The notes: generated from the sequence alone by a model not told the origin. A stretch of 64,000 nt of DNA from Rickettsiales bacterium (GCA_046348685.1 JAXMDT010000006.1:2395-66394), one strand, 5' to 3'; positions 8,699 through 58,762 are shown, counted from the first letter of the stretch. Translations and numbers: made by a program.

Positions 8699-8718
8699 AT
8701 CCCGCATTATTGCGGGAT
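8699..8718 (-). terminator. putative terminator hairpin downstream of ppdK
   Basis: The palindrome atcccgca-ttat-tgcgggat is followed on the minus strand by ..GGTTTTAT. Confidence 0.45.
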
Positions 8719-8773
8719 CGCTAGACCCCGCAACGAGTGCGGCGCACGTCTGAATCTTAGGTTCAGGCCATTT

Positions 8774-14331: not shown

Positions 14332-15279
14332 TTAGCTTCCAGCTGCCAGGTTTCGGGTTTCGGAAGGTATCGTGTTAGGCTCTTTTTCCTGGAACCCGGA
14401 ACCTGGAACCCGAATTCCATCTAACCAAGCAGAACAACACCCTTTAGCCAGCGCGCGCACGCGTCCTATATAAGCCGCACGCTCGGTGACGCCGATAGCG
14501 CCGCGCGAATCGAGCAGGTTGAAGAGATGGCTCGCCTTCAGGCAGTAATCATAGGCGGGCAGCGCCATGCCGCCAATATCGAGCAGGCGCGCGCATTCTT
14601 TTTCCACGTCGTTAAAATGGCGGAACAGCATTTCCGTGTTGGCATGCTCCAGATTGAAGCCGGAGAATTCCACCTCGTTGCGTTTGAAGACATCGCCGTA
14701 GGTTTTCTGCGGATAGCCTTCGGGCGGGTTATTCCATTTGAGATCGTAGACGTTATCGACGCCCTGGATATACATAGCGAGGCGCTCGATGCCGTATGTC
14801 AATTCACCAGAAACGGGGCTGCATTCAAAGCCGCCCACTTGTTGAAAATACGTGAATTGCGTTACTTCCATGCCGTCGCACCAGACTTCCCAGCCAAGCC
14901 CCCACGCGCCGAGCGTCGGGCTTTCCCAGTCATCCTCAACGAAGCGTATATCATGTTCATGCGGGTCGATGCCGAGTTCGACGAGGCTGCCGAGATACAA
15001 ATCCTGAATGTTGTCCGGGGAGGGTTTCAGGATCACCTGAAACTGGTAGTAATGCTGCAAGCGGTTCGGATTCTCACCATATCGGCCATCTTTTGGACGG
15101 CGGGATGGCTGCACATAGGCCACATTCCATGTTTCGGGGCCGAGGGTGCGCAGCGTCGTTGCGGTGTGGAAGGTGCCGGCCCCGACTTCCATATCATAGG
15201 GCTGCAAAATAACGCAGCCGCGATCTCCCCAATAGCGCTGGAGGGTTAAGATAATGTCCTGGAAGCTTTTAACCGTCAT
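14332..15279 (-). CDS. glyQ: glycine--tRNA ligase alpha subunit
   Basis: [12 protein letters not shown]...[19 protein letters not shown] is present. The ~25-aa C-terminal extension (..[25 protein letters not shown]) is encoded by a family B repeat. Confidence 0.95.
14346..14415. repeat. family B hairpin element inside the 3' end of glyQ
   Basis: The sequence is ccaggtttcgggtttcgga...tcctggaacccggaacctggaacccgaa. Confidence 0.7.
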
Positions 15280-20865: not shown

Positions 20866-21188
20866 TTATTATCCTTTGAACGGAACCGGCGTTTCATTTG
20901 CGGGCCGAAGGTGCCGTCCGGCCAGATGGCAAAGACATCCTTTTCACGGCCAACAAGTTCGGAGCCGCTTCCATTTGCCGTTAGCAGCGTCATCTTCGCC
21001 TCGGGAAAAGCGCTAAGATAATAAGTTTGACCTGCAGGAATATCGACAATTGTAGTGTGGTTTCCGGACATGCGTACCGACACCTGATGCGGGACATTCG
21101 CTAAGTTGACAATGCTTAAGGCATGAGCTTCCTGTTGAAAGATAAAGAAAAGCGAAGCAAAAGTGAAAAGCTGTAACAAAAGCTTCAT
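20862..21188 (-). CDS. hypothetical small secreted protein
   Basis: The signal peptide is MKLLLQLFTFASLFFIFQQEAHA. The ORF is 108 aa. Confidence 0.5.
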   Translation of the reverse strand: MKLLLQLFTFASLFFIFQQEAHALSIVNLANVPHQVSVRMSGNHTTIVDIPAGQTYYLSAFPEAKMTLLTANGSGSELVGREKDVFAIWPDGTFGPQMKRRFRSKDNN

Positions 21189-21319: not shown

Positions 21320-22348
21320 ATGATAAAAATTTGGGCTTTAGGAGTGGTTGCCATAAGCATATCCCTGGGATGTGCAGCCGCTGCGCGCGCCGATGATACT
21401 AATATCAATCAGGAAGCCATGCTGCGCAATGCCCGTTACTGCACGCAATATTTTTCCCGCTACGAGCGAACGAACGGTATTCCGAAGAACCTGCTGATGG
21501 CAATTTCCTCCACGGAGTCAGGCCGTTATAACGAGCGCGTGAAAATGACGCTGCCCTGGCCGTGGACGATCAACGTGGACGGGCAGGGAAAATATTTTAA
21601 TACCATGCATGAAGCCGTGGTCGCCACCCGCAATGCGCTCAACAGCGGCGCAAACAACGTGGATGTCGGTTGCATGCAGATCAGCCTGAAACACCATCCC
21701 GACGCTTTCGTCAGCCTGACCGATGCCTTCAGCCCGGAAAAAAATGTCGCGTACGGCGCGAAGTTCCTGCGCGAAAAATACGATGAAGAACGTTCCTGGA
21801 AAAAGGCGATTGCGGCCTATCACTCCAAGACAACGAGCTACGGACAGAAATATTACGCAAGTATCATCCGCACCTGGCGCAATGTGCTCTCCGCCCTCGG
21901 CAACGGATTCGATGTTTCGCCTTCGAGCACGTACGTGATCGACGTGGCAAGCAACGAACGCACGCTCGGCGGCCTGGTGCGCTCTCGTGAAGGGTTGTTT
22001 GATGAAAAAGCGGCATCGCGCAGGCCGAAGGCAGGGGCATCCATGCCGACGATGAAAGTGATTCAGGTGACAACCCGCGCGGATCAGGCGAAGCGTCCCG
22101 AGGTGCTGGTCATTCGTCCGGCAAGCGCTGTGGTGGAACCAAACGTCAAAGTGGCATCGAACACCGTGCTGAATAATAAGCCGGGACTGAACAAGCCAGG
22201 CTTCGATTTTGTCATGGATGTCGGTGAAAGGCAGGAAGCCGATGTCTCGGAGACCATTGCCAAAGTAGAGCCTAAAGTTTCCACGCCTGCCAGCGTGCAG
22301 CGCGTCTCCTCGCCGAAGCGCGGCCCCAACTTCATATTTGCCGAATAG
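21320..22348 (+). CDS. lytic transglycosylase (SLT domain) protein
   Basis: A signal peptide is followed by LLMAISSTESGRYN (catalytic Glu), WPWTINVDG and VDVGCMQI. Confidence 0.8.
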   Translation: MIKIWALGVVAISISLGCAAAARADDTNINQEAMLRNARYCTQYFSRYERTNGIPKNLLMAISSTESGRYNERVKMTLPWPWTINVDGQGKYFNTMHEAVVATRNALNSGANNVDVGCMQISLKHHPDAFVSLTDAFSPEKNVAYGAKFLREKYDEERSWKKAIAAYHSKTTSYGQKYYASIIRTWRNVLSALGNGFDVSPSSTYVIDVASNERTLGGLVRSREGLFDEKAASRRPKAGASMPTMKVIQVTTRADQAKRPEVLVIRPASAVVEPNVKVASNTVLNNKPGLNKPGFDFVMDVGERQEADVSETIAKVEPKVSTPASVQRVSSPKRGPNFIFAE

Positions 22349-25611: not shown

Positions 25612-27255
25612 ATGATGCAACTATACCTTTCACAGATAAATCCTATTGTGGGCGACCTCAAGGGAAACCATGAAAAACTTTGCTCTGCGTGGAAAAAAGC
25701 AAAGGAAATGGGCGCTGATCTCATTGTTTTTCCGGAGCTTGCCATTACAGGTTATCCACCCGAAGACCTGGTGCTAATGCCATCTTTCCAGCAGGCGGCG
25801 ATGCAGGCAGTCGAAAAGCTGGCCAACGAAACGGTGGATGGCCCTGCCATCATTACCGGCGGAATCTGGCACGACGGCACACAGCTTTATAATTCCGCGT
25901 TTCTGATTGAAGAAGGGAATATCGCCCGCATCCAGTTCAAGCATCATCTGCCGAATTATGGCGTATTTGACGAAAAACGCGTCTTTGCCTGCGGCCCGCT
26001 GCCGGAGGTTGTCGAATGGAGAGGAATCAGAATCGGCCTGCTCGTCTGCGAAGACATGTGGGGCGATGAATCGGTTGCGCACGTGGCGAAACAAAATCCG
26101 GATGTGCTGATTTCCATTAATGCTTCCCCCTATGAACGCGGTAAAATGAGCGCGCGAGAAGAGGTGGCGCGCGATGCGGTATCCACCTGCCGTGCGCCGC
26201 TGTTTTATGTGAATACGGTCGGCGGGCAGGATGAAATCGTCTTTGACGGCCGTTCATTTGTGATGGATGCATCCGGTGAGGTATGCGGCAAGTTCAAGGC
26301 ATTCGAAGAGCAGGTTTCGGGTTTCGGGTTTCAGGTTTCGGGAAAAGAAATTGAATTACTCTCCCCTGACAGCTGGAACCTGGAACCTAAAGCGTTAGAG
26401 CTGCTCTACCTCGCCATGATGACCGGCGTGCGGGATTACGTGGAAAAAAATAATTTTCCCGGCGTGGTGATCGGGCTGTCGGGGGGAATCGATTCGGCAT
26501 TGACGGCGTGTGTGGCGGTGGATGCGCTCGGGCCGGAGCGGGTGCATTGCGTAATGATGCCCTCGAAGTATACCTCCGATATCAGTGTCGTCGATGCGAC
26601 TAAACTTGCCACCGAACTTGGCGTGACCTACAACATCGTCACCATCGCGCAAGGCATGGAAGCGGTGGAGGGTATGCTGGCCGGTATACGCGATCAGCTG
26701 ACCTCGCTGGCGATGGAAAATATCCAGCCGCGGATTCGCGGATTGCTGTTGATGGCGATCAGCAATTCCACCGGTAAAATCCTGCTGACGACCGGTAATA
26801 AATCCGAAATGGCGACCGGTTATGCCACGCTTTACGGGGATATGTGCGGTGCATTCAATGTATTGAAAGACCTTTATAAAATGGAAGTCTATGCGCTCTC
26901 CGAATGGCGCAATATGTCGATGCCGCAAGGTGCGAAAGGGCCGGAAGGTGCGGTGATTCCAGAGAGGATTATATCCCGCCCGCCCAGCGCCGAACTGAAG
27001 CCGGACCAAACTGATCAGGATACACTGCCGCCCTATGCGACACTCGATGCGATCCTGAAAGGGCTGGTGGAGGAACGCTTGTCTGTAGAGGATCTGACCG
27101 CGCGCGGATTTGAAAAAACGATGATCGAACAGGTGGCTGGCATGCTGTTTCGCTCGGAATATAAACGCCGGCAAGCCCCGCCGGGGGTCAAACTCTCCTC
27201 GATGAGCTTTGGCCGCGATCGGAGATACCCGCTGACCAACGGGTTTAAACTCTAA
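25612..27255 (+). CDS. nadE: glutamine-dependent NAD+ synthetase
   Basis: An N-terminal CN-hydrolase domain (FPELAITGYPPEDL...LVCEDMW) is followed by a C-terminal synthetase domain (GLSGGIDSAL). The two are separated by a 26-codon repeat insertion. Confidence 0.95.
   Translation: MMQLYLSQINPIVGDLKGNHEKLCSAWKKAKEMGADLIVFPELAITGYPPEDLVLMPSFQQAAMQAVEKLANETVDGPAIITGGIWHDGTQLYNSAFLIEEGNIARIQFKHHLPNYGVFDEKRVFACGPLPEVVEWRGIRIGLLVCEDMWGDESVAHVAKQNPDVLISINASPYERGKMSAREEVARDAVSTCRAPLFYVNTVGGQDEIVFDGRSFVMDASGEVCGKFKAFEEQVSGFGFQVSGKEIELLSPDSWNLEPKALELLYLAMMTGVRDYVEKNNFPGVVIGLSGGIDSALTACVAVDALGPERVHCVMMPSKYTSDISVVDATKLATELGVTYNIVTIAQGMEAVEGMLAGIRDQLTSLAMENIQPRIRGLLLMAISNSTGKILLTTGNKSEMATGYATLYGDMCGAFNVLKDLYKMEVYALSEWRNMSMPQGAKGPEGAVIPERIISRPPSAELKPDQTDQDTLPPYATLDAILKGLVEERLSVEDLTARGFEKTMIEQVAGMLFRSEYKRRQAPPGVKLSSMSFGRDRRYPLTNGFKL
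26311..26388. repeat. family B hairpin element inserted in frame in nadE
   Basis: The sequence caggtttcgggtttcgggtttcaggtttcggg...agctggaacctggaacct is 78 bp (26 codons) and encodes QVSGFGFQVSGKEIELLSPDSWNLEP. Confidence 0.8.
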
Positions 27256-28849: not shown

Positions 28850-29137
28850 ATGCAGCAGTCATATGTTTATATCATGGCTAGCAAGCGAAATGGGACGCTT
28901 TATATCGGCGTTACATCCAATCTTACTCAGCGAGTCTATCAGCATAAAGAAGGTTTGGCTGATGGCTTCACCAAAAAGTATAATATCAAACTGCTGGTTT
29001 ATTATGAAATTCACGAAGAAATAGAGCAAGCTATCCTCCGGGAGACACAGATGAAGGCATGGCAGCGAAAATGGAAGCTGGAATTGATAGAAAAGTTCAA
29101 TCCGGACTGGAAAGATTTATATGAAACCATTATTTAG
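28850..29137 (+). CDS. GIY-YIG nuclease family protein (UPF0213/COG2827-like)
   Basis: YVYIMASKRNGTLYIGVTSNLTQRVYQHKEG...KLLVYYE...A..RE.Q.K.W.R.WK is present. The ORF is 95 aa. Confidence 0.9.
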   Translation: MQQSYVYIMASKRNGTLYIGVTSNLTQRVYQHKEGLADGFTKKYNIKLLVYYEIHEEIEQAILRETQMKAWQRKWKLELIEKFNPDWKDLYETII

Positions 29138-29227: not shown

Positions 29228-30802
29228 ATGACCATCTCCCTCTATAACACGCTCACCCGCCAGAAAGACGCCCTTGTTCCTGAGAATGAGAAGAATGTCC
29301 GCATGTATGTGTGCGGGCCGACGGTGTATGACCGGGCGCATCTGGGTAATGCGCGCTCGGTGGTGGTGTATGATGTGCTCTACCGGCTGCTGCGGCATGT
29401 GTACGGCGAAAAGCAGGTTACCTATGTGCGCAACATCACCGATGTCGATGACAAGATCAACAAGGCCGCCGTTGAGCGCGGCATCACGATTCAACAGCTG
29501 ACGCAGGAAGTCACCGGCTGGTTCCATGCCGATATGGAAGCGCTGAATTGCTTAGAGTTGCCGGAAAAAAATCAGCCGCGTGCAACACAGTATATTAAAC
29601 AAATGATCAAGATGATCGAAAGCCTGATTGCGAATGGCAATGCTTACGTGGCCGAAGGGCATGTTTTGTTTGATGTAAACACCTCCCCCAGTAGGGGGGA
29701 GGATGGGAGGGGGGCGTTGGATGCTCAGAGTTCCCAAAGCCCCCACCCTAACCTTTCCCCTACTGGGGTGGGAAATTGGTATTATGGCATGCTTTCGGGA
29801 CGTTCGCTGGATGATCTGATTGCCGGGGCGCGGGTGGAAGTTGCGCCGTACAAGAAAAGTCCCGGTGATTTTGTGCTGTGGAAACCCGCAGCGGCGACCG
29901 ACGATGCATCGAGCAAATTTGAATCCCCCTGGGGAGTAGGGCGTCCCGGCTGGCATATCGAATGCTCGGCGATGGCGACGGAACTTCTCGGCGATACTTT
30001 CGATATACATGGCGGCGGCGCGGATTTGATGTTCCCGCACCATGAGAACGAAATCGCGCAGGCCTGCGCCGCCAATCCCGGATCACGCTTCGCGAAGATG
30101 TGGGTGCATAACGGATTCCTCACCGTGCATGGCGAGAAGATGAGCAAATCGCTCGGCAATTTCATCACCGTGCGCGATTTGCTGGATAAGGGCGTGCATG
30201 GCGAAGTGATCCGCTTCGCGCTGCTCTCAACGCATTACCGCAAACCGCTCGACTGGACGGACAAGCTGGTTGAAGAAGCTTTTTTTGATCTCAAGTATTT
30301 TGCTCAATATCTATGGCAGAATCAGGGTTTTAAATTTGATAAATTTGAAAAAGAATGGAAAACATTTTCACGCGAACCTGAAGCACAAATTTATCTTTCA
30401 AGATTTTACGAGAGCTTAGAAAGCGATCTCAACTTTAGTGTTGCAAAAACTGTTATTTACGATGTTATTGATGAAATTAAAAAACATGTTTTTAATTTAG
30501 AAGATAAAGAAGACAATCAAGAAAATGAAAAAAACTATTTCATTTATCGTTCAACATTACGGGAAATGTGTGAATTTCTGGGATTATGTACTGTCAACTT
30601 TGTTGAGTGGCAAAAGCAGGAAGAAGCCAACAAAAATAGCGGTAGCGATGTAGAAGCGATTCAAAATCGCATCGGAGCGCGGAAAGCAGCTAAGCTTGCC
30701 AAGAACTGGGCGGAGGCAGACCGCATACGCGATGAACTAAAAGCCGAGGGCATCCTGCTCGAAGACAAGCCGGGTGATGTGACGGAGTGGAGAAGGCTTT
30801 AA
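29228..30802 (+). CDS. cysS: cysteine--tRNA ligase
   Basis: [18 protein letters not shown] contains the HIGH motif and KMSKSLGN is present. At 524 aa it is longer than usual because of a ~30-codon repeat insertion. It contains a strongly AT-rich internal segment. Confidence 0.95.
29682..29775. repeat. family A ('GEG-type') MITE-like element in frame in cysS
   Basis: cctcccccagtaggggggaggatgggagggggg...cccccaccctaacctttcccctactggggtgggaaa encodes [31 protein letters not shown], between FDV and YGMLSG. Confidence 0.75.
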
Positions 30803-31698
30803 TGGCTAGCCTTCTTGAATACTTCTACAATGATTTTTGGCGATATAGAGCGTATGGATCAAATTGGCCTTTAGCCCTCTTTTTAGGTGAAAAATATCCT
30901 TCACCTAGTTTATCAGGGTCAAGCTTTTTAGGGTTACCAGAATTACAAGAGCACAGCTTTTTATATGCTCATAGATACGACGAAGCTACCCGAAGCTTTC
31001 CATTAATTTTCTATATTCCAGCAATTGAAGAACATGAGATTCTAATTATAAGAATATTAGAAAACCTACATTACTTCTTAGATCATGGACTTCTAAAAAC
31101 AGGCCCTATATTCAATGAAAAAATACTAAATGAAGAGTTGGATTTTAGCGGAACAATATATTTTTATTCAGAAAATATTATCGGCGTTGAAACGCAAAAG
31201 AAACTGGAAGAATATGCGGGTTTACGAATTATAATTAGAGAAAAACTTTACGCTGAAGAAAAATCTAAAGTTGAAAAACCAGTTGCATTTATTTCCTATG
31301 ATAATCGCGATAAAGAAGTTGCTGAGCAGATAGTCTTTGGACTCCAAAAAATGAATTTTCCTGCACCAATATGGTTTGATCAATATTCCCTTAAGTGGGG
31401 CAATAATATGAGAAAGACTATTGAAGATGGCTTAAAAAGATCAAAAAAATGCATAGTTGTTCTATCTCAAAATTATATGGAAAACAGAAGCTGGGCTGCA
31501 GAAGAATTTGAAAGCGCCTACCAAAAAGGTTTGCACGAAAAAGAAGATATTTTTCTTCCGATATGGAAAGGCGTTACAGAAAAAGAAGTTTATGAATTTT
31601 CACCTAAGCTTAAAAATGTAAAAGGCATTATTTGGAGCGAAGATAATAAAGATAAAAATATGCGTAACGTATTCGATGTTCTAAAAGAGTTACTATGA
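30802..31698 (+). CDS. TIR-domain protein with an uncharacterised ~165-aa N-terminal domain
   Basis: The C-terminal TIR pattern is VAFISYDNRDKEVAE...IWFDQYSLKWG...KKCIVVLSQNYMENRSWAAEEFE...IFLPIW. The gene is strongly AT-rich. Its start overlaps the cysS stop (TAATG); a GTG at 30787 is an alternative start. Its stop overlaps the next start (ATGA). Confidence 0.8.
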   Translation: MASLLEYFYNDFWRYRAYGSNWPLALFLGEKYPSPSLSGSSFLGLPELQEHSFLYAHRYDEATRSFPLIFYIPAIEEHEILIIRILENLHYFLDHGLLKTGPIFNEKILNEELDFSGTIYFYSENIIGVETQKKLEEYAGLRIIIREKLYAEEKSKVEKPVAFISYDNRDKEVAEQIVFGLQKMNFPAPIWFDQYSLKWGNNMRKTIEDGLKRSKKCIVVLSQNYMENRSWAAEEFESAYQKGLHEKEDIFLPIWKGVTEKEVYEFSPKLKNVKGIIWSEDNKDKNMRNVFDVLKELL

Positions 31699-32324
31699 AC
31701 AAAGGAAAACTGACCATTGTCGGGTCACTGACCAGCCCGTTTGTGAGGGTGGTGCGGACGGTGTGCGAGGAACTGCAGCTGCCCTACGACATGGATTTGA
31801 CCGTCTTTTTCGCCAAGCAGGATGAAGCGGCGAAAGAACATCTCTCGCAGCACAATCCCTTGATGCGGGTGCCGGTGCTGATCGACGGCGAAAAACATAT
31901 ACTCGATTCGCGGATTATTCTCAGCTATCTGCTGAAGCATCCGGACGCCAAACCGCTCACCGATTTCCGCGCGGATTTTCCGCGGGGACTGGAAGACGAA
32001 AACCGCCTTTCGGTGCTTTATGGGATCGTCGATGCCGGGGTGCTGTACTTCATTATGCGCAACCTTCACCCGGAAGTAAAACCGGACACAGGCTACCTGG
32101 TGCAATCCCAGCGCCGCATCCGGCAGGGGCTGGAGTGGCTAGATAAAGATAAGGAGCTAGGCGAAGGTTTCGGGATTCCGGAACTGGTTCTCCTCTGCGG
32201 GCTGGAATGGTTCAAGAAGAGGGAAGTGGTTGAATGGACAGGATATTCGCATCTTAGAGCCGTCCATGCGCGTTACCATGAGCGGCCATCTCTCGTAAAA
32301 ACATGTATTCCGGAAAACGCTTAA
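31695..32324 (+). CDS. glutathione S-transferase family protein
   Basis: The thioredoxin-like N-terminal domain reads SPFVRVVR...HNPLMRVPVLIDGEKHILDSRIILSYL. The G+C is normal. Confidence 0.7.
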   Translation: MNKGKLTIVGSLTSPFVRVVRTVCEELQLPYDMDLTVFFAKQDEAAKEHLSQHNPLMRVPVLIDGEKHILDSRIILSYLLKHPDAKPLTDFRADFPRGLEDENRLSVLYGIVDAGVLYFIMRNLHPEVKPDTGYLVQSQRRIRQGLEWLDKDKELGEGFGIPELVLLCGLEWFKKREVVEWTGYSHLRAVHARYHERPSLVKTCIPENA

Positions 32325-34162: not shown

Positions 34163-34178
34163 TGTCATAAAAGCTTCA
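34163..34178 (+). promoter_or_regulatory. conserved upstream motif copy 1 (TGTCATAAAAGCTTCA)
   Basis: It lies 46 nt upstream of ATG 34225. A TAAAAT -10-like hexamer follows 24 nt downstream. Confidence 0.55.
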
Positions 34179-34224
34179 TTGGTAGTGGTAAGAAGTGTCG
34201 CGTAAAATAAGCATAGGAAATTCT

Positions 34225-34998
34225 ATGCTTTTTTTGATTCCACTTGCTGCTGAAGGAATCGCCGCCTTGTTTGGCGGCGGCGCGGCTGCGGCTGCCGGTA
34301 CGGCGGCGGTCGTGGGAACGGAAGCGGCCATCGGAACGGCAGCTGCCGTTGGCACCGCTGCCGTGGCAACCGAAGCGGCCGCTGTAGCAGCAGGTACGAC
34401 GGCTGCCGTCGGCGGCACGGCGGCAAGCGCCGGATTGCTGGCAAGCGTGGGGCTTTGGGGTAGCCGCTTGATTGCGCCGGCACGGTGGGCATTTAGTGCC
34501 TTGCGTTCGGGCGGATTAGTCCGCGGTGGAAAGATTGGATTGGAAGCAGCTGAAAAAGTTGCAACGAGCGGTGGCGCGCGAACCGCACTGACAAAAGTCG
34601 GATTAGCAGGCGGTGGCGCGGCGCTCGGCGCGACGGGCGCTACAGCGACATGGGCGGCATCGACTGCGATTACTCTGTCAATTTTTGCGGGGATCGCCCT
34701 TGCCGTTGCCATTGGCGGATTTGCGCTTTACCGCGCGTTTGCCAGCCCAAGTGACGTCTCGGAAAGCACAATGCGTGAAAAACCGCGGGATATTCCCCAG
34801 CCGGCGATGCAGGTGCCGCAGCAGCAGGTCATGATGCAGCCGCAGCAACAGCAACCCGTCATAATGATGCAGGCGCCGCAGCCGCAAGGCTACTGGGTGC
34901 AGCGCGTCGCCACACCGCAGATACAGCAGCAATCCTTCGCCGCTGCCGAAGACCAACGCCGCCAGCAGGCAGCCTTAGCGCAGAACGTTGTCCAATAA
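34225..34998 (+). CDS. Gly/Ala/Thr-rich membrane protein with a Q/P/M-rich C-terminal tail
   Basis: I prefer ATG 34225 (RBS AGGAAA) over GTG 34195. A low-complexity GTAAAVG-type region and TM helices are followed by the tail PQQQVMMQPQQQQPVIMMQAPQPQGYWVQ. Confidence 0.55.
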   Translation: MLFLIPLAAEGIAALFGGGAAAAAGTAAVVGTEAAIGTAAAVGTAAVATEAAAVAAGTTAAVGGTAASAGLLASVGLWGSRLIAPARWAFSALRSGGLVRGGKIGLEAAEKVATSGGARTALTKVGLAGGGAALGATGATATWAASTAITLSIFAGIALAVAIGGFALYRAFASPSDVSESTMREKPRDIPQPAMQVPQQQVMMQPQQQQPVIMMQAPQPQGYWVQRVATPQIQQQSFAAAEDQRRQQAALAQNVVQ

Positions 34999-35073
34999 GG
35001 TTTCAGCTTTCAGGTTTCAGGTTTTAGTATATTTATAAACCATGCTGACACCTGAAACCCGGCACCTGAATCC
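34999..35073. repeat. family B hairpin element spanning the methyltransferase start codon
   Basis: The sequence is ggtttcagctttcaggtttcaggtttt-agtatatttataaaccATGctgaca-cctgaaacccggcacctgaatcc. Confidence 0.75.
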
Positions 35074-35776
35074 CCCCACCGTCATTCTCGATCGCCCGCA
35101 GATGGGCGAAAACATCGGCGCGGTGGCGCGCGCGATGATGAATTTCGGCATGCGCGAATTGCGGCTGGTGAACCCGCGCGACGGCTGGCCGAATCCGAAG
35201 GCGCATGAGATGAGCGCCAATGCCGATGTGATCATCGAGGCGGCACGCGTATACGATACGTTTTCCTCGGCGCTTGCCGATTGCCATTTCGTGATTGCGG
35301 CGACCGCCCGAAAACGCGAATTGGAAATTCCGACTTACACGCCGCGCGAATCGGCTTCTCTGCTGCTCGAAAAAATGCGCGATGGCGAAAAGGTAGGCAT
35401 CGTGCTCGGCGGCGAGCGGGCGGGACTTGCCAATGAAGATATCGTTCACTGCCAGGCGATCTGCACGATCCCTACCGACCCTGCCAATGCCTCGCTGAAT
35501 ATCGCACAGAGCATGGTGATTTTAGGCTATGAATGGTGGATGGCCACTCTGCAGGACGCAGAGCATAGCGGCCCGGAGATGGCCCATGCCACCAACGGCG
35601 AGCGGCAGGCGCTCTACGAGCACCTCGTCTGGGCGCTCGATAATAGCCAGTATTTCCAACACGAGGGCAGGGCGCTCGTCATGCAGCGCAACCTTCGTTC
35701 CATGCTGGCGCGGCTTCCTCTAACATCCCAGCAAATACAGTCGCTTAGGGGCATGATTCGGGCGCTGATGTCTTAA
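35042..35776 (+). CDS. TrmH/SpoU-family RNA methyltransferase (TrmJ/LasT-like, group 1)
   Basis: VILDRPQMGENIGAVARAMMNFGMRELRLVNPR...VLGGERAGLANED...IPTDPANASLNIAQSM is present. The first ~10 codons (MLTPETRHLNP) come from the repeat. Confidence 0.8.
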   Translation: MLTPETRHLNPPTVILDRPQMGENIGAVARAMMNFGMRELRLVNPRDGWPNPKAHEMSANADVIIEAARVYDTFSSALADCHFVIAATARKRELEIPTYTPRESASLLLEKMRDGEKVGIVLGGERAGLANEDIVHCQAICTIPTDPANASLNIAQSMVILGYEWWMATLQDAEHSGPEMAHATNGERQALYEHLVWALDNSQYFQHEGRALVMQRNLRSMLARLPLTSQQIQSLRGMIRALMS

Positions 35777-35790
35777 TATTTTTACGTATT

Positions 35791-35806
35791 TGTCATCGAA
35801 GCTTCA
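35791..35806 (+). promoter_or_regulatory. conserved upstream motif copy 2 (TGTCATCGAAGCTTCA)
   Basis: It lies 53 nt upstream of ATG 35860. TATAAT at 35830-35835 follows 23 nt downstream. Confidence 0.6.
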
Positions 35807-35859
35807 TACATAATCGGCGGGAAGCGGCGTATAATACTCATATAAAATAGGATCATCGC

Positions 35860-36222
35860 ATGAGCATTTTAGGAACCGCCTGGAATACTGTTACCGCCCC
35901 AATCAGGGGTATTTTTTCCGGTCTGGCGACCTGGAGCGATGTATCGACGGCGACTCTTGTCCCACTTATGGTCGTTGGCGGTGCCGTTGGGCTTTTTTTT
36001 GGTCCGGGAGCGGCGCTTGTCGGCGTTGCAGGAGGCGCGCTTGCCGCTGCGGGGTTAGGAATGGTAGCGGGTGCGGGAGACGCGGCGATTTCAACGACGA
36101 CCAATGTGGCCAGCGCTGTTTTTGGCGGCAGCAGTGAACAGACAGCCAGCGCCGGTGAAGAACAGGCTGTGGAATCCGGCCTGCCGGCAAAAGGCAAAGA
36201 ATCAGGCGGGAGAACGGTTTAA
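35860..36222 (+). CDS. small glycine-zipper membrane protein
   Basis: The 120-aa ORF contains VVGGAVGLFFGPGAALVGVAGGALAAAGLGMVAGAG (GxxxG-rich) and an acidic/Ser-rich tail. Confidence 0.55.
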   Translation: MSILGTAWNTVTAPIRGIFSGLATWSDVSTATLVPLMVVGGAVGLFFGPGAALVGVAGGALAAAGLGMVAGAGDAAISTTTNVASAVFGGSSEQTASAGEEQAVESGLPAKGKESGGRTV

Positions 36223-36235
36223 CAAGAAATTAAAT

Positions 36236-36251
36236 GTCACAGAAGCTTAAC
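36236..36251 (+). promoter_or_regulatory. conserved upstream motif copy 3 (TGTCACAGAAGCTTAA)
   Basis: It lies 54 nt upstream of ATG 36306. TATAGT at 36275-36280 follows 23 nt downstream. Confidence 0.6.
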
Positions 36252-36305
36252 ACACAGGACAAAGCAAATCCCCTATAGTTAGGGTGTAATAATAGAGAAA
36301 AACTT

Positions 36306-36809
36306 ATGGCAAACTATCGTGACTCTTATGAACCATCCGGCGCCCGCGTTGCTGCAACAGCAGCAAGCGAAACGGCACGCGGTGTTGGAATTGGGCTAGC
36401 ACTGACTGGCGCGTTGCTGATTGGCACGCCGATTGTTGCTTTCTGGGCAGGCGCTCCCATCATCGGTGCAATCGCAACGGCTGTGGCGATTGGCGCAGCA
36501 ATATTCGCGCCCGTGGTTTTTGGTATCGCAGGCGTTGCTGGTGCTATCTCAGGATTCAAAAAAGGCACGGAGAAAATCGATAACGATTATGCCCGTGCAC
36601 ATGAAATTCAAAAAGCCCAATCCGTACTGACATCTCAGGAGCGTGAAATGGGCCGTGCGGAAGCTTACGCTGAAATGAATCAGCCTCGCTCCGCTTTCAT
36701 GGCACAGGCTCCGGTCTATGTTTCGACGGGTGAATGCCCACATTGCAAGGTAAACAGCATGAATTACCAGGGTCAAGCCGTTGCCCTGCAACATGGAATT
36801 GCGAGCTAG
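36306..36809 (+). CDS. glycine-zipper membrane protein with a C-terminal CPHC and YQGQ motif
   Basis: The 167-aa ORF has TM/Gly-Ala region GVGIGLALTGALLIG...GAIATAVAIGAAIFAPVVFGIAGVAGAISG. The tail reads ...FMAQAPVYVSTGECPHCKVNSMNYQGQAVALQHG. Confidence 0.55.
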   Translation: MANYRDSYEPSGARVAATAASETARGVGIGLALTGALLIGTPIVAFWAGAPIIGAIATAVAIGAAIFAPVVFGIAGVAGAISGFKKGTEKIDNDYARAHEIQKAQSVLTSQEREMGRAEAYAEMNQPRSAFMAQAPVYVSTGECPHCKVNSMNYQGQAVALQHGIAS

Positions 36810-36818
36810 GAGTAAGTT

Positions 36819-38282
36819 ATGGCACGTTGGTGGAATAAGACGAAAAAGGCTGTAGGAAACGCTACGATTGGCGAGCAGGCACGTTATAACCGGCTAAACG
36901 CTGCTGTGGGCGCAACAGAAGACGAGCTGAGCAGACTTGAGACTGGGACCGGGGGTACAAGGGGTCTCCTCGACCTCGAGCATGAGCATGAGGAAGCTGT
37001 TGCTAAACATGCTGAAGCGGCAGCCGCGCATGCAGAAGCAAAAGACGCATTTACCCCAATTGATATTCAGCAGAAAAAACTACAAGCGGAAGTTACAGGT
37101 GCGAAAACGCGCCTTGAGGCACTTCAAAAAGCTCATGAAGCTGCAGAAAAGGCCCATGCCGATCATCAAGCGAAAATTAGCGATATTGAAAGCCGTGTCG
37201 GTTCGGCTTCGGTTGAAGACCTTGCGCAAGCTAGGCAAGATGCCGAAATTGCCCGTGCTCAGGCACGTCACCCACTTAAAAAACTCGAGACTACGTTGCC
37301 TGGTGGAAGTACAGGTAATATTGATGAGTACTTTAAAAATGAACGGGAGAGATATAAAGAAGCCAAGCGTAAAATTAAATCCGCTTTAGGCACGCCTCGT
37401 GAAGAGACTGCAATAAAAGAGTTTAATGAAGCAAGAGCAAATCTTGTTGAAGCCCGAAAGATTCGACGTGGTACTGAAGAATACAGGGTATGGAGCGCAG
37501 CTAACAACGAGTACCTTGCAGCAGAAGCACTGCATGAGGAAGCAAAAGCCCTTGGCGGACTCCGAGCGAAATCAGATGGATTGAAAAAAGCAGCTGATCA
37601 AGCAGAAGCAAAACTCACAGGGAGTCCTGATCATGTGAAGCTTAAGGAAGCAGAAGCGGCATTGGAGACTCACACAACGGAAGTACATACACCTGCTGCA
37701 AACAGGTTGGCATTAGCAAAAGAGGCAGTTGAAGGCGGATCCGTTACAGGCACTCGCGAAGCAATGAAAAACGCTGAGCATGCACTTAAATCGACAACCC
37801 GCCGCCAGGAATTACTGGAAGGCCGACTTGAGCGCCAAACAAAACGCTTGGAGCAGGTCGGCGAAAAATGGCGGATCGGCAAGTCTGGTAAGATTGTGAC
37901 GGGTCCAATGAAATTTGCTGGAAAAACGTTGAAATGGGGTGGTCTTGGTGTGTTGGCAGCCGGCGCTGGCGCTTTGGCTTACAATGCGCTAAAGCCTTCA
38001 AATCGCGGTTCTGATGAGGCGCTGCAAGGTCTGAAAGACCAGATCGCCGAAAATGAAGCGAAGCTGACGGCGATTCAGACGATGCAGCCGCAGCAGCCGG
38101 TGATGCAGCAGCCGATCATGGTTGCCGCGACGCCGCAAGGCCCGGTCGCAACGCAATATCCGCCCGTAATGATGGTTCCGGCGAACAGCAATGTTCCAGC
38201 AACCTCGATTACCAGCGCCGGCCTGCAGTACCAGGGTCAGCTGATAGCGAATCAAGGCCAGATGATGGGAGCGCCTGCGTAG
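36819..38282 (+). CDS. coiled-coil protein with a C-terminal TM anchor and Q/P/M-rich tail
   Basis: This 487-aa ORF starts 9 nt after the previous stop. Long heptad-like Ala/Glu/Lys helices are followed by TM WGGLGVLAAGAGALAYNAL. The tail is MQPQQPVMQQPIMVAATPQG...LQYQGQLIANQGQ. Confidence 0.6.
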   Translation: MARWWNKTKKAVGNATIGEQARYNRLNAAVGATEDELSRLETGTGGTRGLLDLEHEHEEAVAKHAEAAAAHAEAKDAFTPIDIQQKKLQAEVTGAKTRLEALQKAHEAAEKAHADHQAKISDIESRVGSASVEDLAQARQDAEIARAQARHPLKKLETTLPGGSTGNIDEYFKNERERYKEAKRKIKSALGTPREETAIKEFNEARANLVEARKIRRGTEEYRVWSAANNEYLAAEALHEEAKALGGLRAKSDGLKKAADQAEAKLTGSPDHVKLKEAEAALETHTTEVHTPAANRLALAKEAVEGGSVTGTREAMKNAEHALKSTTRRQELLEGRLERQTKRLEQVGEKWRIGKSGKIVTGPMKFAGKTLKWGGLGVLAAGAGALAYNALKPSNRGSDEALQGLKDQIAENEAKLTAIQTMQPQQPVMQQPIMVAATPQGPVATQYPPVMMVPANSNVPATSITSAGLQYQGQLIANQGQMMGAPA

Positions 38283-38292
38283 GCTTCATCCC

Positions 38293-38347
38293 CAGCTTTC
38301 AGGTTTCAGGTTAATCGGGTTCAGCATGCTGAACCCGATTTTCTTTT
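38293..38347 (+). terminator. repeat-derived rho-independent terminator
   Basis: A family B half-arm cagctttcaggtttcaggtt is followed by the hairpin aatcgggttcagc/gctgaacccgatt and TTCTTTT. Confidence 0.7.
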
Positions 38348-39149: not shown

Positions 39150-39668
39150 ATGGCTTCAAATGACGATACCACCGATGCACGCTTTCTGAGCGAGGCGGAA
39201 TCCGACCAGTTCAAAACCTTTGAACAGGAGATCGCCAAGCTTGCCGAGCGGGCTGCGGCGGGTGCGGAAAACATCGATATGGAACTGGCCAACCTGCTGG
39301 TTGGCGTGCCTGATTCCGTGCGCAATGAAGCGGTGGCCCAGTTTCGCGCGCTGGTCAAAGAGATGCAGCAGGAAAAGGGCCAAAGCGCCGTTCTCTCGCC
39401 GGAGCAGGAAAAACAGATGACGCTGCTCAAAGAACAGGAGCGCCAATTTCTTGCGCACTGGCTTTCAGATAAAACGCTAAAGAAGCTGCGTGAGGCGATT
39501 CTTTCCAACCCGCTATTTATGTCGCAGGTGATGAATATCGGCGATGAGCTTTACAAACGCGGCGTGTTTGTGACGCTGGATAAAGATATGCCGCAAACTG
39601 GCCAGCAGGTCACCGCGCAGCCGGTGATTGCCCCGGGCCACGAGCGTGGCGAGGGCCGGAAGCGCTGA
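39150..39668 (+). CDS. hypothetical protein
   Basis: This 172-aa helical, E/Q/K-rich ORF belongs to no family I recognise. Its 3' end overlaps the convergent ORF 39610-41166 by 59 nt, so one of the two ends may be mis-set. Confidence 0.45.
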   Translation: MASNDDTTDARFLSEAESDQFKTFEQEIAKLAERAAAGAENIDMELANLLVGVPDSVRNEAVAQFRALVKEMQQEKGQSAVLSPEQEKQMTLLKEQERQFLAHWLSDKTLKKLREAILSNPLFMSQVMNIGDELYKRGVFVTLDKDMPQTGQQVTAQPVIAPGHERGEGRKR

Positions 39669-41166
39669 TATGTTCTTCACCTGATTTAAGCCGTGCTAAC
39701 AATTCATCAAATGGCTTACTGTTTTTCGCTGCCTCATAAAGTGCATGCTCATCTACCGTACCATGAGCAAACAATTCCTGCTCAATTGCCTGGATAATTG
39801 GTCTGTTCATTGCGTCGGCATTTTCTCCTACGTAAAAACCGATCTGCAAAAGCGCATTACGCGCTTGAGCTGCCCTTTCCGCTATCACATGGTGTTTTGC
39901 GATTGCATCTTCCAGTGCTTCCTGAAGTGGTTGCCAAGCAGCTTCATATGCTGTGGCAAATCCTTTTATATAGTGTGTTGCTAAGGCATGGTCATACAGA
40001 TGATTTTGAATAAGGCTCTGCTGAATCTGAAAATCATTTTTGCCTTCATAATGTTTTCTAAAAATAGCTAGAGAGTCTGCATCGATAAAAACAGGCAGGC
40101 GGTGTGGATCGACAGCGGTATCAAACTGAATTGTCAATGGCTTGTTGGGGTGCTTTTCATGGTCAGCGAGTAAAACAGCGGCATTGCTAACACTAAAATT
40201 GGGATTCGGTTTACCTGGAATGGCTTCCTGAAGTTCAAACGTCAGCGGGCTTACCACAACTGTGCTGGGCTCTGCGTAGCCGCCTAGGATATCTGCGGAA
40301 ATAATATCAACATTCTTTTGAGATAAATAACTCAGGACGTTTTCCAAATTTGCGTGGGAGCGTGGGTTACTGTCGAAACGTGCGCCAATCAATCTAACTT
40401 GTAGTTTTCGATCGCCAAACCGCTTGAAGAAGCTATCGAGGCTTTGCGTATCCGATTCGTAATTTAAATGTACGATACCTGTTTTCTTAGTAGCCGGATC
40501 GCGTGCGATAATAGTGACGCATTCCCCGATATTGTCCGTGCCAATACAGGTTTTATTAGAAAAACCGGCTTCGCCTTCTTCAACGCGCTTTGCGGTAACA
40601 TCTGTATTGCCTCCAGATTGCATATGCCGAGACATGCGCAAAGCTTGCTCCTGGACACCGGCCAATCTTTCTTGATAGCGTCTCGCGGTAGAGGGGGCGC
40701 TTCCAGCATAATGGGAGATCGTCTTGCCTAAAGCACTGTAGAGATAATCGATATCACGAAAGGCATGGTCTGTGCGTCCTAAATTTTCATGAATATCGAC
40801 TGCCTTTTGTAATAGCGGAATGCCATATTCTGCAGCAGGTTTTCCGTCTACATCGCCCTCTATGTTCAAGCATGACTGCCCTGCCATGGAATATGTATTA
40901 CCTTGTTCAACATATTTTCCCTCGTGCCCATATGCATCTCCGGCTAGCTTATGTGACAGAATGCTTTCAGGTATATTTCCAGAGTTGAATGCATCATAAC
41001 CTTTTTGCTCCGCAGCACCTGCGGTAGAGTTTATATTTAAAACATATTGCAGGTTGGATTGCACGCGAGTGCGCGTGTTGAAACCGGATGGAAGCTTCAT
41101 CAAGCGATCAATGAGATCGTTGAAAGCCGTAGATGTAATGGGTTCACCTTGGATAGAAAATGACAT
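39610..41166 (-). CDS. hypothetical 518-aa protein with a CheD/CNF1-like Thr-Cys-His motif (candidate deamidase or effector)
   Basis: The central segment CIGTDNIGECVTIIARDPATKKTGIVHLNYESD has Thr at -6 and His at +17 relative to the Cys. G+C is lower than in the flanks. There is no signal peptide and no chemotaxis context. Confidence 0.5.
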   Translation of the reverse strand: MSFSIQGEPITSTAFNDLIDRLMKLPSGFNTRTRVQSNLQYVLNINSTAGAAEQKGYDAFNSGNIPESILSHKLAGDAYGHEGKYVEQGNTYSMAGQSCLNIEGDVDGKPAAEYGIPLLQKAVDIHENLGRTDHAFRDIDYLYSALGKTISHYAGSAPSTARRYQERLAGVQEQALRMSRHMQSGGNTDVTAKRVEEGEAGFSNKTCIGTDNIGECVTIIARDPATKKTGIVHLNYESDTQSLDSFFKRFGDRKLQVRLIGARFDSNPRSHANLENVLSYLSQKNVDIISADILGGYAEPSTVVVSPLTFELQEAIPGKPNPNFSVSNAAVLLADHEKHPNKPLTIQFDTAVDPHRLPVFIDADSLAIFRKHYEGKNDFQIQQSLIQNHLYDHALATHYIKGFATAYEAAWQPLQEALEDAIAKHHVIAERAAQARNALLQIGFYVGENADAMNRPIIQAIEQELFAHGTVDEHALYEAAKNSKPFDELLARLKSGEEHISASGPRHARGPGQSPAAR

Positions 41167-49607: not shown

Positions 49608-50957
49608 TTAAGTGGTTTTGAATCTAATTTCGACGCCAAGCCCGGGCTGTTTATCTCTGAAAGACATTTCTGCATTGTGAAGCTTTAAAATCGCATCGAC
49701 GACGCTGAGACCAATGCCGGTGCCCGGTGTGGTTCGGCTTTCCTCGAGCCGGAAAAAGCGCTCTTTTACTTTGTTATGATAGGCATTCGGAATGCCCGGG
49801 CCGCGATCTTCAATAGTGAGAATGATCGTATCATTATCCGCCACGGCTTTGAGCATGACACTCCCCTTAGCGGGCGAAAATTTGATGGCGTTGTCGAGCA
49901 GGTTGGCAATTGCCTGGGTAAGCAGCTGGCGATCGCCAGTGATATGCAATCCGGGTGACACATGCGAGGTGATGGCAACCTGCTTTTCTTCCGCCAGCGG
50001 CAAATAAAAATCGAGCACATCATCCAGTATATCGGAAAGCGCGATATCGGAAAAATGATCCGCTTCCACGCGCGACTCCGCACGCGAGATGACAAGCAGC
50101 GCATCGCACAGATCGCGCAGGCGGTCGATTTCGGCAATGGCTTCGGATAGCGGCTGGCGCATATTATCCGGAGTGGCCGGCAGTGCCAGCATATGTTCGA
50201 GGCGCAGGCGATGGCGATTAAGTGGTGTGCGAAGATCATGCGCCATATTGTCCGAGGTGGCGCGCACGTTATCGATCAGTTCATTGATGCGGCCGAGCAT
50301 ACGGTTGAAGTTTTCACCCAGCTGATCGAATTCGTCATGGCTGCCGGTGACCGGCACGCGTGCGGAAAGATCGCCCTCCATGAGGATGCGGCATGTATGA
50401 TTTACCTGGCGCAGCTTGCGCGTGATGAAAAGCGTAATCAGCGTGCTGCAGAAAATAGCGGCGGCGAGGGAAAGCAGGAAGTCGGTAAACAGGCGGCTGA
50501 TAACGATCTGCTCAATCTTCCGTACATGTTTTAAGCTGTATCCAATGATAAACTGGCCGCCTTCGGAATAGCGATGGTATCGGATAAGATATTCATCGCC
50601 CCCCATATGGAGCCTATAATATTTTTCACGCTTTTCCGGCATATGCGGAATATAATCCAGATTGCCTTCCAGCTTGCGCCCATGCGGGTCAAAATAGGCG
50701 ATGATGAATAAATTTTCTTCATCATTATCCAGCAATGCACTGATAAGGTTTAGCGCGCGCGGCGTGAGATTGTGGCCAAGGGCGGAATCGACTTCGCTAT
50801 ATTCCTGCTCGACAATTCCCCGCACCTCACGCAGCGCTTCCTGTACGGTGCCATAATAAATCAAAGTGCGCAGCACCAGCAGCACCACGAAAAATGCCAG
50901 AAAGCACAGCATTGTCAGCCTGAAGCTATAAGACTTGAGTACGGGCTTATGCCACAT
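49608..50957 (-). CDS. sensor histidine kinase (two TM segments, HAMP, HisKA, HATPase_c)
   Basis: I moved the start to ATG 50957 (MWHKPVLKS..). The H-box is MAHDLRTPLNR and the G-boxes are DRGPGIP and GTGIGLS. It overlaps the regulator stop. Confidence 0.85.
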   Translation of the reverse strand: MWHKPVLKSYSFRLTMLCFLAFFVVLLVLRTLIYYGTVQEALREVRGIVEQEYSEVDSALGHNLTPRALNLISALLDNDEENLFIIAYFDPHGRKLEGNLDYIPHMPEKREKYYRLHMGGDEYLIRYHRYSEGGQFIIGYSLKHVRKIEQIVISRLFTDFLLSLAAAIFCSTLITLFITRKLRQVNHTCRILMEGDLSARVPVTGSHDEFDQLGENFNRMLGRINELIDNVRATSDNMAHDLRTPLNRHRLRLEHMLALPATPDNMRQPLSEAIAEIDRLRDLCDALLVISRAESRVEADHFSDIALSDILDDVLDFYLPLAEEKQVAITSHVSPGLHITGDRQLLTQAIANLLDNAIKFSPAKGSVMLKAVADNDTIILTIEDRGPGIPNAYHNKVKERFFRLEESRTTPGTGIGLSVVDAILKLHNAEMSFRDKQPGLGVEIRFKTT

Positions 50958-51621
50958 CGAGCTTGTATCCCACCCCGCGTAGCGTATGGATGAGGGGCTT
51001 TTCAAAACCTTTGTCGATTTTCTGACGCAACCGGCTGATCTGCGCATCGATCAGGTTGGTCTGCGGATTGAAGTGGAAATCCCATACGCCTTCGAGCAGC
51101 ATCGTGCGCGTGATGACCTGTCCGGGGCGACGCATCATGTATTCAAGGAGGCGGAATTCACGGTTGAGGAGCGCAATCTCCTTTCCCGAGCGCATGACTT
51201 TCCGGTGCAGCAGATTAAGCTCGAGGTCGGAAAATTTAAGCACTGTCTGCTCGGTGGGCGACGCGGTGCGGCGTACCAAGGCTTCGACACGGGCCAGCAG
51301 TTCGGCAAAGGAAAACGGTTTGGTGAGATAATCGTCGCCGCCGGAGCGCAGTCCTTTGATGCGTTCTTCAACCTGATTCAGCGCGCTCAGCACCAGGGCA
51401 GGGGTGTGGTTGCTTGACTGGCGGAGCGTCTGTATCATGGCGAGGCCGTCGATCTTCGGCAACATGCGGTCAACGACAAGTGCATCGTATATGCCCTCCG
51501 TTGCCATATAGAGGCCTTCCATGCCATCTTTCGCCCAGTCAGCATTATGGCCCGCTTCTTTCAGGCCATCGGTTATGTACTGGCCGGTAACCTCATCATC
51601 CTCTACGATCAATATGTGCAT
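50947..51621 (-). CDS. OmpR-family response regulator
   Basis: The receiver reads MHILIVEDDE...DALVVDRMLPKIDG...LTKPF. The winged-helix region reads ..RGVGYKL. Confidence 0.9.
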   Translation of the reverse strand: MHILIVEDDEVTGQYITDGLKEAGHNADWAKDGMEGLYMATEGIYDALVVDRMLPKIDGLAMIQTLRQSSNHTPALVLSALNQVEERIKGLRSGGDDYLTKPFSFAELLARVEALVRRTASPTEQTVLKFSDLELNLLHRKVMRSGKEIALLNREFRLLEYMMRRPGQVITRTMLLEGVWDFHFNPQTNLIDAQISRLRQKIDKGFEKPLIHTLRGVGYKLDVA

Positions 51622-58477: not shown

Positions 58478-58762
58478 ATGCCTTACTGGGTTTACATCGT
58501 CACCAATAAGCCGAATGGCATTCTGTATATTGGGGTGACGAATGATATTGCACGGCGAAGTTATGAGCATCGTGAAGGGCTCATTGAAGGCTTTACGAAA
58601 AAATATGGTCTGAAAATGCTTGTTTATGCAGAAGAATATGCCACGATTGAAGAAGCGATTCATCGTGAGAAGTGCATGAAAGAATGGAAGCGTGCATGGA
58701 AAATCAGGCGTATTTTAGAGGCAAATCCTGATTGGCATGACTTATTTGAAATCTTAGTGTAA
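58478..58762 (+). CDS. GIY-YIG nuclease family protein (second copy)
   Basis: YWVYIVTNKPNGILYIGVTNDIARRSYEHREG...KMLVYAE...REK.MKEWKRAWK is present. The ORF is 94 aa and is a clear paralogue of 28850-29137. Confidence 0.9.
   Translation: MPYWVYIVTNKPNGILYIGVTNDIARRSYEHREGLIEGFTKKYGLKMLVYAEEYATIEEAIHREKCMKEWKRAWKIRRILEANPDWHDLFEILV

Follow-up and report, generated by a model that had tools for sequence, protein, structure and literature searches.

Four genes of a 64-kb stretch of DNA from a Rickettsiales bacterium (64,000 nucleotides, hereafter the window, from whose first letter all positions are counted) lie between the housekeeping genes cimA/trmJ and rpsD and are here called A, B, C and D. 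Judged from the sequence, we hold it an even chance that they represent four lineage-restricted families forming one co-regulated cell-envelope module, in which C and D are a pair with a docking motif. Apparently, A, B and C-D are three transcription units that carry the same upstream box and would be switched on together; this shared box is a new finding of the present analysis. A module inherited vertically in a clade of uncultured Rickettsiales-like alphaproteobacteria is the best-supported reading. The initial annotation had seen here a cluster of paralogous membrane proteins with variable heads and a common tail that may serve as an interaction, sorting or secretion signal. Its observation was confirmed in part and its interpretation was supported in part. 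Four other explanations, each less well supported than an envelope module, are weighed below where the evidence bears on them. The features of the cluster, with all four reading frames found on the plus strand as the initial annotation had placed them, are:

34163..34179, plus strand: box upstream of A, TGTCATAAAAGCTTCAT, a TCA-N8-TCA direct repeat; 27.6 bits with the position weight matrix (PWM) of the box
34203-34208, plus strand: predicted -10 hexamer of A, TAAAAT, 23 nt from the box
34225..34998, plus strand: gene A, 257 amino acids (aa)
34273-34434, plus strand: Ala/Gly/Thr array of A (aa 17-70)
34651-34731, plus strand: transmembrane (TM) helix of A (aa 143-169)
34795-34890, plus strand: Q/P/M run of A (aa 191-222)
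34891-34908, plus strand: family motif of A, YWVQRV, followed by a Q-rich end
35042..35776, plus strand: trmJ-type SpoU RNA 2'-O-methyltransferase, a housekeeping gene without the box
35791..35807, plus strand: box upstream of B, TGTCATCGAAGCTTCAT, 25.8 bits; predicted -10 hexamer TATAAT at 35830-35835
35860..36222, plus strand: gene B, 120 aa, with an acidic tail that lacks Q/M enrichment
35956-36078, plus strand: predicted Gly-zipper hydrophobic hairpin of B (aa 33-73)
36235..36251, plus strand: box upstream of the C-D operon, TGTCACAGAAGCTTAAC, 24.2 bits; predicted -10 hexamer TATAGT at 36274-36279
36306..36809, plus strand: gene C, 167 aa, beginning with an N-terminal motif, then an uncharged Gly/Ala-rich span of 59 aa (aa 26-84) and a Q/A-rich helix (aa 85-124)
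36696-36797, plus strand: tail block of C, FMAQAPVYVSTGECPHCKVNSMNYQGQAVALQHG (aa 131-164), with YQGQ at 36765-36776
36819..38282, plus strand: gene D, 487 aa, starting 9 nt past the stop codon of C, with a coiled-coil head (aa 1-352)
37935-37991, plus strand: Gly/Ala-rich anchor of D (aa 373-391), followed by a helix (aa 398-420)
38079-38186, plus strand: Q/P/M run of D (aa 421-456)
38184-38261, plus strand: block of D, NSNVPATSITSAGLQYQGQLIANQGQ (aa 456-481), with YQGQ at 38229-38240
38313-38340, plus strand: intrinsic terminator, a 12-bp stem and a T-run, ending the C-D unit
from 38403: a promoter of its own, TTGACA-16-TATATT, for rpsD, the gene after D

In one alphaproteobacterial clade, 11 metagenomic contigs (designated by L numbers) show the gene order cimA-[A]-trmJ-B-C-D-rpsD again, usually with a conserved gene for 172-181 aa next. 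The order trmJ-B-C-D-rpsD is found in the window and in L001, L003, L004, L007, L083, L085, L087, L088 and L089; the short contigs L002, L084, L086 and L090 hold only the part of it that fits. This synteny spans RpsD identities from 96% down to 66%. C and D are adjacent in 11 of 11 loci with a gap of 1-17 nt (at most 12 nt in 10 of them), B has orthologues in nine loci, and A is present in the window, L003, L004, L087, L089 and, in two copies, L010. The nearest genomes by CimA (76%) are metagenome-assembled genomes labelled "Rickettsiales bacterium". The families are very rare and known from this group alone: among 5.8 billion proteins three to six relatives of D and five of C were found, an exhaustive HMMER search of 1.84 billion proteins gave 23 representatives of the C family, all of 158-242 aa, and patterns for D and C retrieved nothing from GTDB genomes or JGI metagenomes.

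The second line of evidence is the box. A repeat search returned TTGTCAT..AAGCTTCAT ahead of A, B and C, and a degenerate 17-mer of the box has exactly three perfect matches in the 64 kb, where 0.00 are expected. The consensus TGTCAY-N6-CTTCAY, that is TCA-N8-TCA with an 11-bp period, stands ahead of the orthologues of A, B and C in all clades (for A in L003, L004, L087 and L010), with PWM scores of 19-27.6 bits against a shuffle maximum of about 16. A predicted -10 hexamer, TAnnnT, follows 21-23 nt downstream at 25 of 25 sites examined, which puts the box at about -51 to -35 from the predicted transcription start; all boxes are on the coding strand. An alternative start of A, GTG at 34195, would place the -10 hexamer inside the reading frame, and ATG at 34225 is therefore preferred. 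The box of B is invariant between the window, L001, L083 and L088, and the 78-nt leader of C-D is about 90% identical in five genomes, in both cases next to genes whose synonymous sites are saturated. The claim that the genes form one functional cluster is thus supported by the synteny in 11 contigs together with an identical upstream box on three promoters.

What kind of regulator might bind there? A direct repeat with an 11-bp period is the hallmark of OmpR-family response regulators. In Rhodobacter sphaeroides, CenR has the box TGA-N8-TGA, for which numerous TCAC variants appear in Table 1 of that study; it is located directly upstream of the -35 element, co-directional with transcription, and 29 of 31 target units are directed to the envelope (PMC9275681). 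Compared with the PWM of the 31 published CenR sites, our box matched best at the expected register and in the expected orientation. Out of 2000 column permutations, only 11 were as similar, and in the closest single pair of box and CenR site 13 of 15 positions are identical. TCA-N8-TCA precedes A, B and C in every genome examined, and at 25 sites the box is upstream of the inferred -35 position and co-directional. Other known boxes were considered and rejected. The Pho box of PhoB comprises CTGTCAT twice, about 10 nt ahead of the -10 hexamer. It is a direct repeat with strict spacing (PMC10294691). Its first half-site would fit (TGTCAY), but the second one is CTTCAY here and the distance to the -10 hexamer is 21-23 nt instead of about 10, which rules it out. 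The ChvI box, GCC repeats 11 nt apart, does not fit the upstream element, and the CtrA box, sigma-54 promoters and the alphaproteobacterial LexA box fail on half-site or spacing.

A metal-sensing two-component system would be a different source of control, inducing Met-rich tails that bind soft metals such as Cu(I) or serve as an oxidant sink in the envelope. Met accounts for 7.6-8.3% of the residues in the tails of A and D, threefold the background of 2.5%; in one subclade the tails of C contain CPHC or CPNC, and in others His-rich stretches surround the motif; a CopR/CusR-like regulator and its kinase are encoded in the window; and the first half-site, TGTCAT, resembles half-sites of Pho and Cus boxes. 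However, the dominant enrichment is that of Gln, at 4-5 times background, a regular MxM or MxxM pattern was not apparent by eye, and Cys and His are not conserved across the C family, in which no fixed pattern of soft-metal ligands, such as the HMA-type MxCxxC, recurs. As a direct repeat, the box finds its best match in CenR sites, and the two-component pair is below the curated cut-offs of the metal subfamilies and unlinked to the cluster. We regard this explanation as unlikely.

The pair in question overlaps at 49608-51621 on the minus strand; response regulator and histidine kinase are closest to the CopR/CusR/SilR heavy-metal subfamily, with scores of 247.8 against a cut-off of 279.2 and 181.5 against 292.6. 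Boxes also occur elsewhere in the window. A fourth strong match, TGTAACAAAAGCTTCAT at 21172-21188 on the plus strand (24.5 bits, TACGGT 22 nt downstream), precedes a gene for a lytic transglycosylase with an SLT domain (21320-22348, Pfam E=9e-10); it overlaps the start codon of a minus-strand reading frame and is not conserved upstream of the L004 orthologue. At 8436-8452 on the minus strand, the TCA-N8-TCA repeat CGTCATCATACCGTCAC is clean and is followed 21 nt later by TAGTAT, with a PWM score of only 14.2 bits; it precedes a gene for a 220-aa protein without known function (7728-8390, minus strand) beside a bactofilin gene (6975-7613).

The third line of evidence comes from the proteins. 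Synonymous differences to three or four orthologues are saturated throughout (proportion of synonymous differences, pS, 0.6-0.8), and C and D as a whole evolve fast, with 60% identity where RpsD has 96%. The head of D has a proportion of nonsynonymous differences (pN) of 0.42-0.51 and 26-40% amino-acid identity, its tail a pN of 0.16-0.26 and 62-77% identity. In C, the N-terminal and TM part is 38-56% identical, the last 41 residues 76-85% (pN 0.06-0.14), which is as good as or better than TrmJ (77%). The tails of C and D are the most constrained portions of fast-evolving proteins. A variable head with a conserved tail, as the initial annotation had it, therefore describes D and C each for itself; it does not hold as three paralogous tails.

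The tetrapeptide YQGQ is found within the window only in C and D, 11-14 residues from the C-termini. This likeness had been noticed before and was confirmed and STRENGTHENED; family profiles demonstrate that it is position-specific. With profiles built from 26 C and 12 D sequences, hhalign aligned 17 columns ending in [YH]-x-G (P=1.2e-5, probability 81%). The score of 41.3 compares with 7.7 +/- 1.7 (maximum 12.3) for 200 column shuffles of the D alignment and with 14.8 for the reversed alignment. Before the families were enlarged, the comparison of profile hidden Markov models (HMMs) by hhalign had been only marginal (E=0.073; P=0.007), and a pairwise alignment of the C and D tails alone gave p=0.08 in composition-preserving shuffles. 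Across the wider C family the element takes the form [YH]-[QDE]-G, which about 20 of 24 members have; one A-family tail, that of L089 (VYQGPML), carries [YH]-x-G as well.

The resemblance between A and D is of another kind. In the best 30-aa window, Q+P+M amount to 80% in A and 60% in D, and to no more than 43% in every other open reading frame (ORF) of the 64 kb. Over seven A and 13 D proteins, the tails contain 7.6-8.3% Met, 13-15% Gln and 9-11% Pro, compared with 2.5%, 3.1% and 4.5% in the background, so the richness in these residues is a conserved family trait and not an accident of this genome. The runs themselves cannot be aligned. The two tails had been called near-superimposable, yet the refuting test that the initial annotation itself had named goes against this: their local alignment scores 46 against 38.4 +/- 6.6 for shuffles (p=0.14), and hhalign, fed with five A-family tails and twelve D-family sequences, gave 16.5 against a column-shuffle maximum of 17.5. 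The "MxQAP" piece assigned to A and C did not survive either (p=0.56 by pairwise shuffle; hhalign P=0.49). What A and D have in common is composition, not descent. Tails of the A family are marked by a motif of their own, W-[VQ]-x-R-[VMT], which is YWVQRV in the window. HMMs of the A, C and D tails found no other family at E<1 among 7,665 ORFs, and "paralogous" is thus justified for the 17-column block of C and D and for nothing else.

Could the whole resemblance be low-complexity composition, that is, unconstrained filler in neighbouring genes that have nothing to do with each other? The A-D and A-C alignments are no better than shuffles, the tail HMMs do not cross-find families and the pairwise C-D signal is weak, all as expected from composition. 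However, the tails of C and D are the most conserved parts in spite of saturated synonymous sites, their profiles score far above a composition-preserving null, and synteny and an identical box link the genes. For C-D and for the cluster as a whole, this explanation is already refuted; it stands for the A-versus-D run, and as an account of the whole cluster we consider it very improbable.

At the DNA level, a stretch of 28 nt in the A and D tails is 86% identical; gene conversion was considered and rejected, the identity being explicable by Q/P/M codon usage. A perfect inverted repeat of 18 nt connects the TM-coding part of C (36447-36464) with the 3' end of D (38261-38278); it is not conserved in L001, L002, L083 or L088 and is probably a by-product of Ala/Gly/Pro codons.

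The topology of the proteins matters for what the tails may do. Members of the C family have one uncharged span of about 60 aa with 2.6 and 3.3 Lys/Arg per 20 aa on its two flanks, for which a helical hairpin with both termini in the cytoplasm is the simplest arrangement; this suggests that C is such a hairpin with a cytoplasmic tail. A has one strongly hydrophobic TM helix after an N-terminal part of 140 aa that is devoid of a signal peptide, and its tail is therefore probably periplasmic. Hence, from hydropathy and charge, the tail of A and those of C and D may reside in different compartments. The anchor of D consists of 19 uncharged Gly/Ala-rich residues of marginal hydropathy, for which AlphaFold2 (AF2) predicts no helix; in short-form orthologues it has only about 12 such residues and may not span the membrane. 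Tails that follow a TM helix, as had been claimed, are thus found in A and C, with D left aside for its marginal 19-aa span.

A common sorting, secretion or localisation signal on different cargo heads, as had been suggested, would also give a variable head and a conserved tail in D, and a short motif that recurs in C, D and one A-family member (L089). In known C-terminal sorting signals (LPXTG, PEP-CTERM, GlyGly-CTERM) the motif is followed by a TM helix and a basic C-terminal cluster. Here the order is reversed: the tails are past the membrane anchor, with 11-40 residues beyond the motif, and the ends are not basic but rich in Gln, Gly and Ala; no sorting-domain model of NCBIfam matched. C resembles a hairpin whose two ends are cytoplasmic, the tail of A is probably periplasmic, and the short D forms have almost no cargo. 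Further tail-bearing proteins are absent from the 64 kb (YQGQ only in C and D, the Q/P/M run only in A and D), no secretion genes are linked to the cluster, and A is missing altogether in three close relatives. With tails past the anchor, differing compartments and a dispensable A, we think a sorting or secretion signal quite unlikely.

The speed of evolution could have yet another reason. The proteins could be effectors that an intracellular bacterium directs at its host, or Inc-like proteins inserted into the membrane of host or vacuole, with rapid evolution driven by the host, and C and D do evolve very fast (60% where RpsD has 96%); moreover, C has a bilobed hydrophobic span, D a coiled coil, and proteins of the TIR, filamentous-haemagglutinin-like and deamidase-like types in the window suggest a host-associated lifestyle. 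Effectors are difficult to reconcile with genes that throughout the clade keep one place on the chromosome, flanked by housekeeping genes, with an envelope-type promoter box that appears to drive the genes, with the lack of an evident secretion system or signal and with tails under strong purifying instead of diversifying selection. We rate this as highly improbable.

The window encodes the following proteins of these types, and others. Between cysS and cimA, an insertion of low GC (0.41) at 30787-32324, where relatives have different genes, encodes a ThsB-like TIR-domain protein (Pfam TIR_2, E=1.5e-15; PADLOC PDC-S66, E=8.6e-30) and a 209-aa ORF whose counterparts in L083 and L087 have Pfam GST_N domains. 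A 518-aa protein at 39610-41166 on the minus strand has weak matches to CheD, XopAK and N-terminal Asn amidohydrolase (E=0.002-0.02) and may be a deamidase-type effector; L001, L083 and L085 have other unannotated ORFs there, assigned by position only. A filamentous-haemagglutinin-type protein (N-terminal domain E=2e-22) and an adhesin with VCBS/tandem-95 repeats are encoded at 750-4448 and 61130-63676, both on the minus strand. Two small paralogous ORFs at 28850-29137 and 58478-58762 are GIY-YIG nuclease-like by eye only.

Coming back to a co-regulated envelope module, the following picture would account for the data. The box would be the binding site of a CenR-type response regulator of the OmpR family that activates the module along with further envelope genes. 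B and C would be oligomerising inner-membrane proteins made of glycine-zipper helical hairpins, and D a coiled-coil partner that docks on C, with a head that would have been enlarged to a 350-aa coiled coil in some lineages. The C/D block may serve as a short linear docking motif by which the tails bind one another or one common partner, and the Q/P/M runs may be flexible spacers selected for composition. It is tempting to speculate further that the block, N-x2-[AP]-x5-[SN]-x2-[YH]-x-G, is an undescribed motif that holds together a CenR-controlled complex of hairpins and coiled coil, a lineage-specific scaffold for envelope or division, but at present this is doubtful.

Several observations weigh against this picture. 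The assignment to CenR involves a motif of low information, with p about 0.005, and the sole response regulator in the window is CopR/CusR-like and 12 kb off. [YH]-x-G is degenerate or absent in the most distant D proteins, those of L085 and L007. If the anchor of D spans the membrane, the tails of C and D would be on opposite sides and could have no partner in common. AF2 confidence is low, with a mean predicted local distance difference test (pLDDT) score of 46 for C and about 30 for the tail of D, and supports no docking interface. Finally, A is dispensable: three close relatives, L001, L083 and L088, lack it between cimA and trmJ.

Other parts of the description given in the initial annotation fared well. 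The low-complexity array of A is made of Ala, Gly and Thr and includes an 18-nt tandem repeat at 34296-34347; the Gly-zipper bundle corresponds to uncharged Gly/Ala-rich spans in B (about 46 aa) and C (about 59 aa). D exists in a short form of 158-205 aa and in a long form with the coiled-coil head, which AF2 models as a confident long antiparallel coiled coil, with pLDDT above 90 at about residues 55-310 and helices reaching residue 352. Likewise, no family was recognised for A-D above cut-off in Pfam-A, NCBIfam, PHROGs, PADLOC or PDB sequences. Matches below threshold were inspected and rejected: PsbN (14 bits), Snapin (19.7 against 29.6) and LmuB (20 bits) concern low-complexity sequence, MamG (18 bits against a cut-off of 100) and Promethin (18 against 27) the Gly/Ala-rich span only, and those to phage tape-measure proteins, LeoBC and LmuB low-complexity or coiled-coil regions. 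PDB 9qef_E, a "co-purified transmembrane protein" of the mycobacterial respiratory supercomplex, matched with E=0.027 in the Gly-rich TM region only, and Foldseek with D returned only generic long coiled coils (MukB elbow, SH3BP5, dynein stalk) with TM-scores of at most 0.24. Rfam and tRNA scans of the 64-kb window were empty, and literature searches for YQGQ, or for glycine zippers together with Holosporales, gave nothing relevant.

The gene that interrupts the cluster is indeed a methyltransferase (TIGR00050, 176.3 bits against a cut-off of 167.15; Pfam SpoU_methylase, PF00588, E=2e-25). A repeat was said to have altered its start, and the sequence features behind this were confirmed: a heptamer repeat immediately precedes the start, part of it recurs in inverted orientation within the first codons, and the N-terminus reads MLTPETRHLNPPTV compared with MMPPIV in orthologues. 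The repeat search also found identical 20-mers past the stop codons of A and D. In the window, (CAGGTTT/AGGTTTC)n has eight matches where 0.01 are expected; further copies are at 13571-13597, 14340-14359 and 26311-26337, and those at the cluster are:

34997..35024, plus strand: tandem heptamer repeat (AGGTTTC)n, directly past the stop codon of A
35050-35068: partial inverted copy inside the first codons of trmJ
38293-38312, plus strand: second copy, past the stop codon of D and before the terminator

Three other proteins are worth mentioning. A conserved protein of 172-187 aa without known function is encoded directly after rpsD in most genomes of the clade (39150-39668 in the window, plus strand; also in L001, L003, L007, L083, L085, L087 and L088), with no box upstream and no family match. 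L010 has a second A-like protein (8211-9179) with an extremely Met/Gln-rich tail and a TYWQDQV motif. L003 encodes, at 6409-7464 on the minus strand, a protein of 351 aa whose Gly/Ala anchor resembles that of D and whose sequence finishes with ...QQQAMMNSQGGPGMGA; like the second A-like protein of L010, it is paralogue-like.

If true, a co-regulated module of this kind would mean that an uncultured Rickettsiales-like branch has its own core envelope module of four orphan families, wired into a conserved regulon of envelope stress and division. A 17-nt box, three promoters and a 17-residue motif would be a handle on its envelope biology. It would also be an example in which disordered, compositionally selected tails together with a short linear motif are the constrained parts of fast-evolving membrane proteins. 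The interest is moderate, given that the organisms have not been cultured and that metagenomic data contain many orphan membrane proteins.

Among known systems, ZipA, FtsN, TonB and DamX are built of a membrane anchor, a low-complexity Pro/Gln-rich spacer and a short or small terminal interaction element. The layout here is the same, again with composition conserved and sequence not, but there is no relation by sequence or Pfam and no SPOR, TonB-C or FtsZ-binding domain, the terminal element amounts to no more than a short motif, and there is an enrichment of Met as well. Oligomerising helical hairpins typically have uncharged spans of about 50-60 aa that are rich in Gly and Ala. Such spans with GxxxG-type spacing connect B and C with MamG/Mms-type proteins, Mic10 and promethin; a magnetosome or MICOS context is lacking here, and nothing in those proteins corresponds to the conserved N-terminal motif of C, to its helix or to its [YH]-x-G tail. 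ElaB/YqjD-type proteins combine a coiled coil in the cytoplasm with an anchor at the C-terminus. Long-form D resembles them in its cytoplasmic helical head followed by a single C-terminal hydrophobic segment, but it has no DUF883 match, a conserved 96-residue tail follows the anchor, and the head is lineage-specific and absent in the short forms. With the CenK-CenR regulon of R. sphaeroides and Caulobacter crescentus, the A-D box shares the 11-bp-period repeat, its placement and its direction; in both cases most targets belong to the membrane or envelope, and many are hypothetical proteins. A-D are not among the CenR targets described so far, and the box here has the additional conserved positions TGTCAY, AA and CTTCAY. 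The families A-D are new and very rare, but their regulation looks like a known kind.

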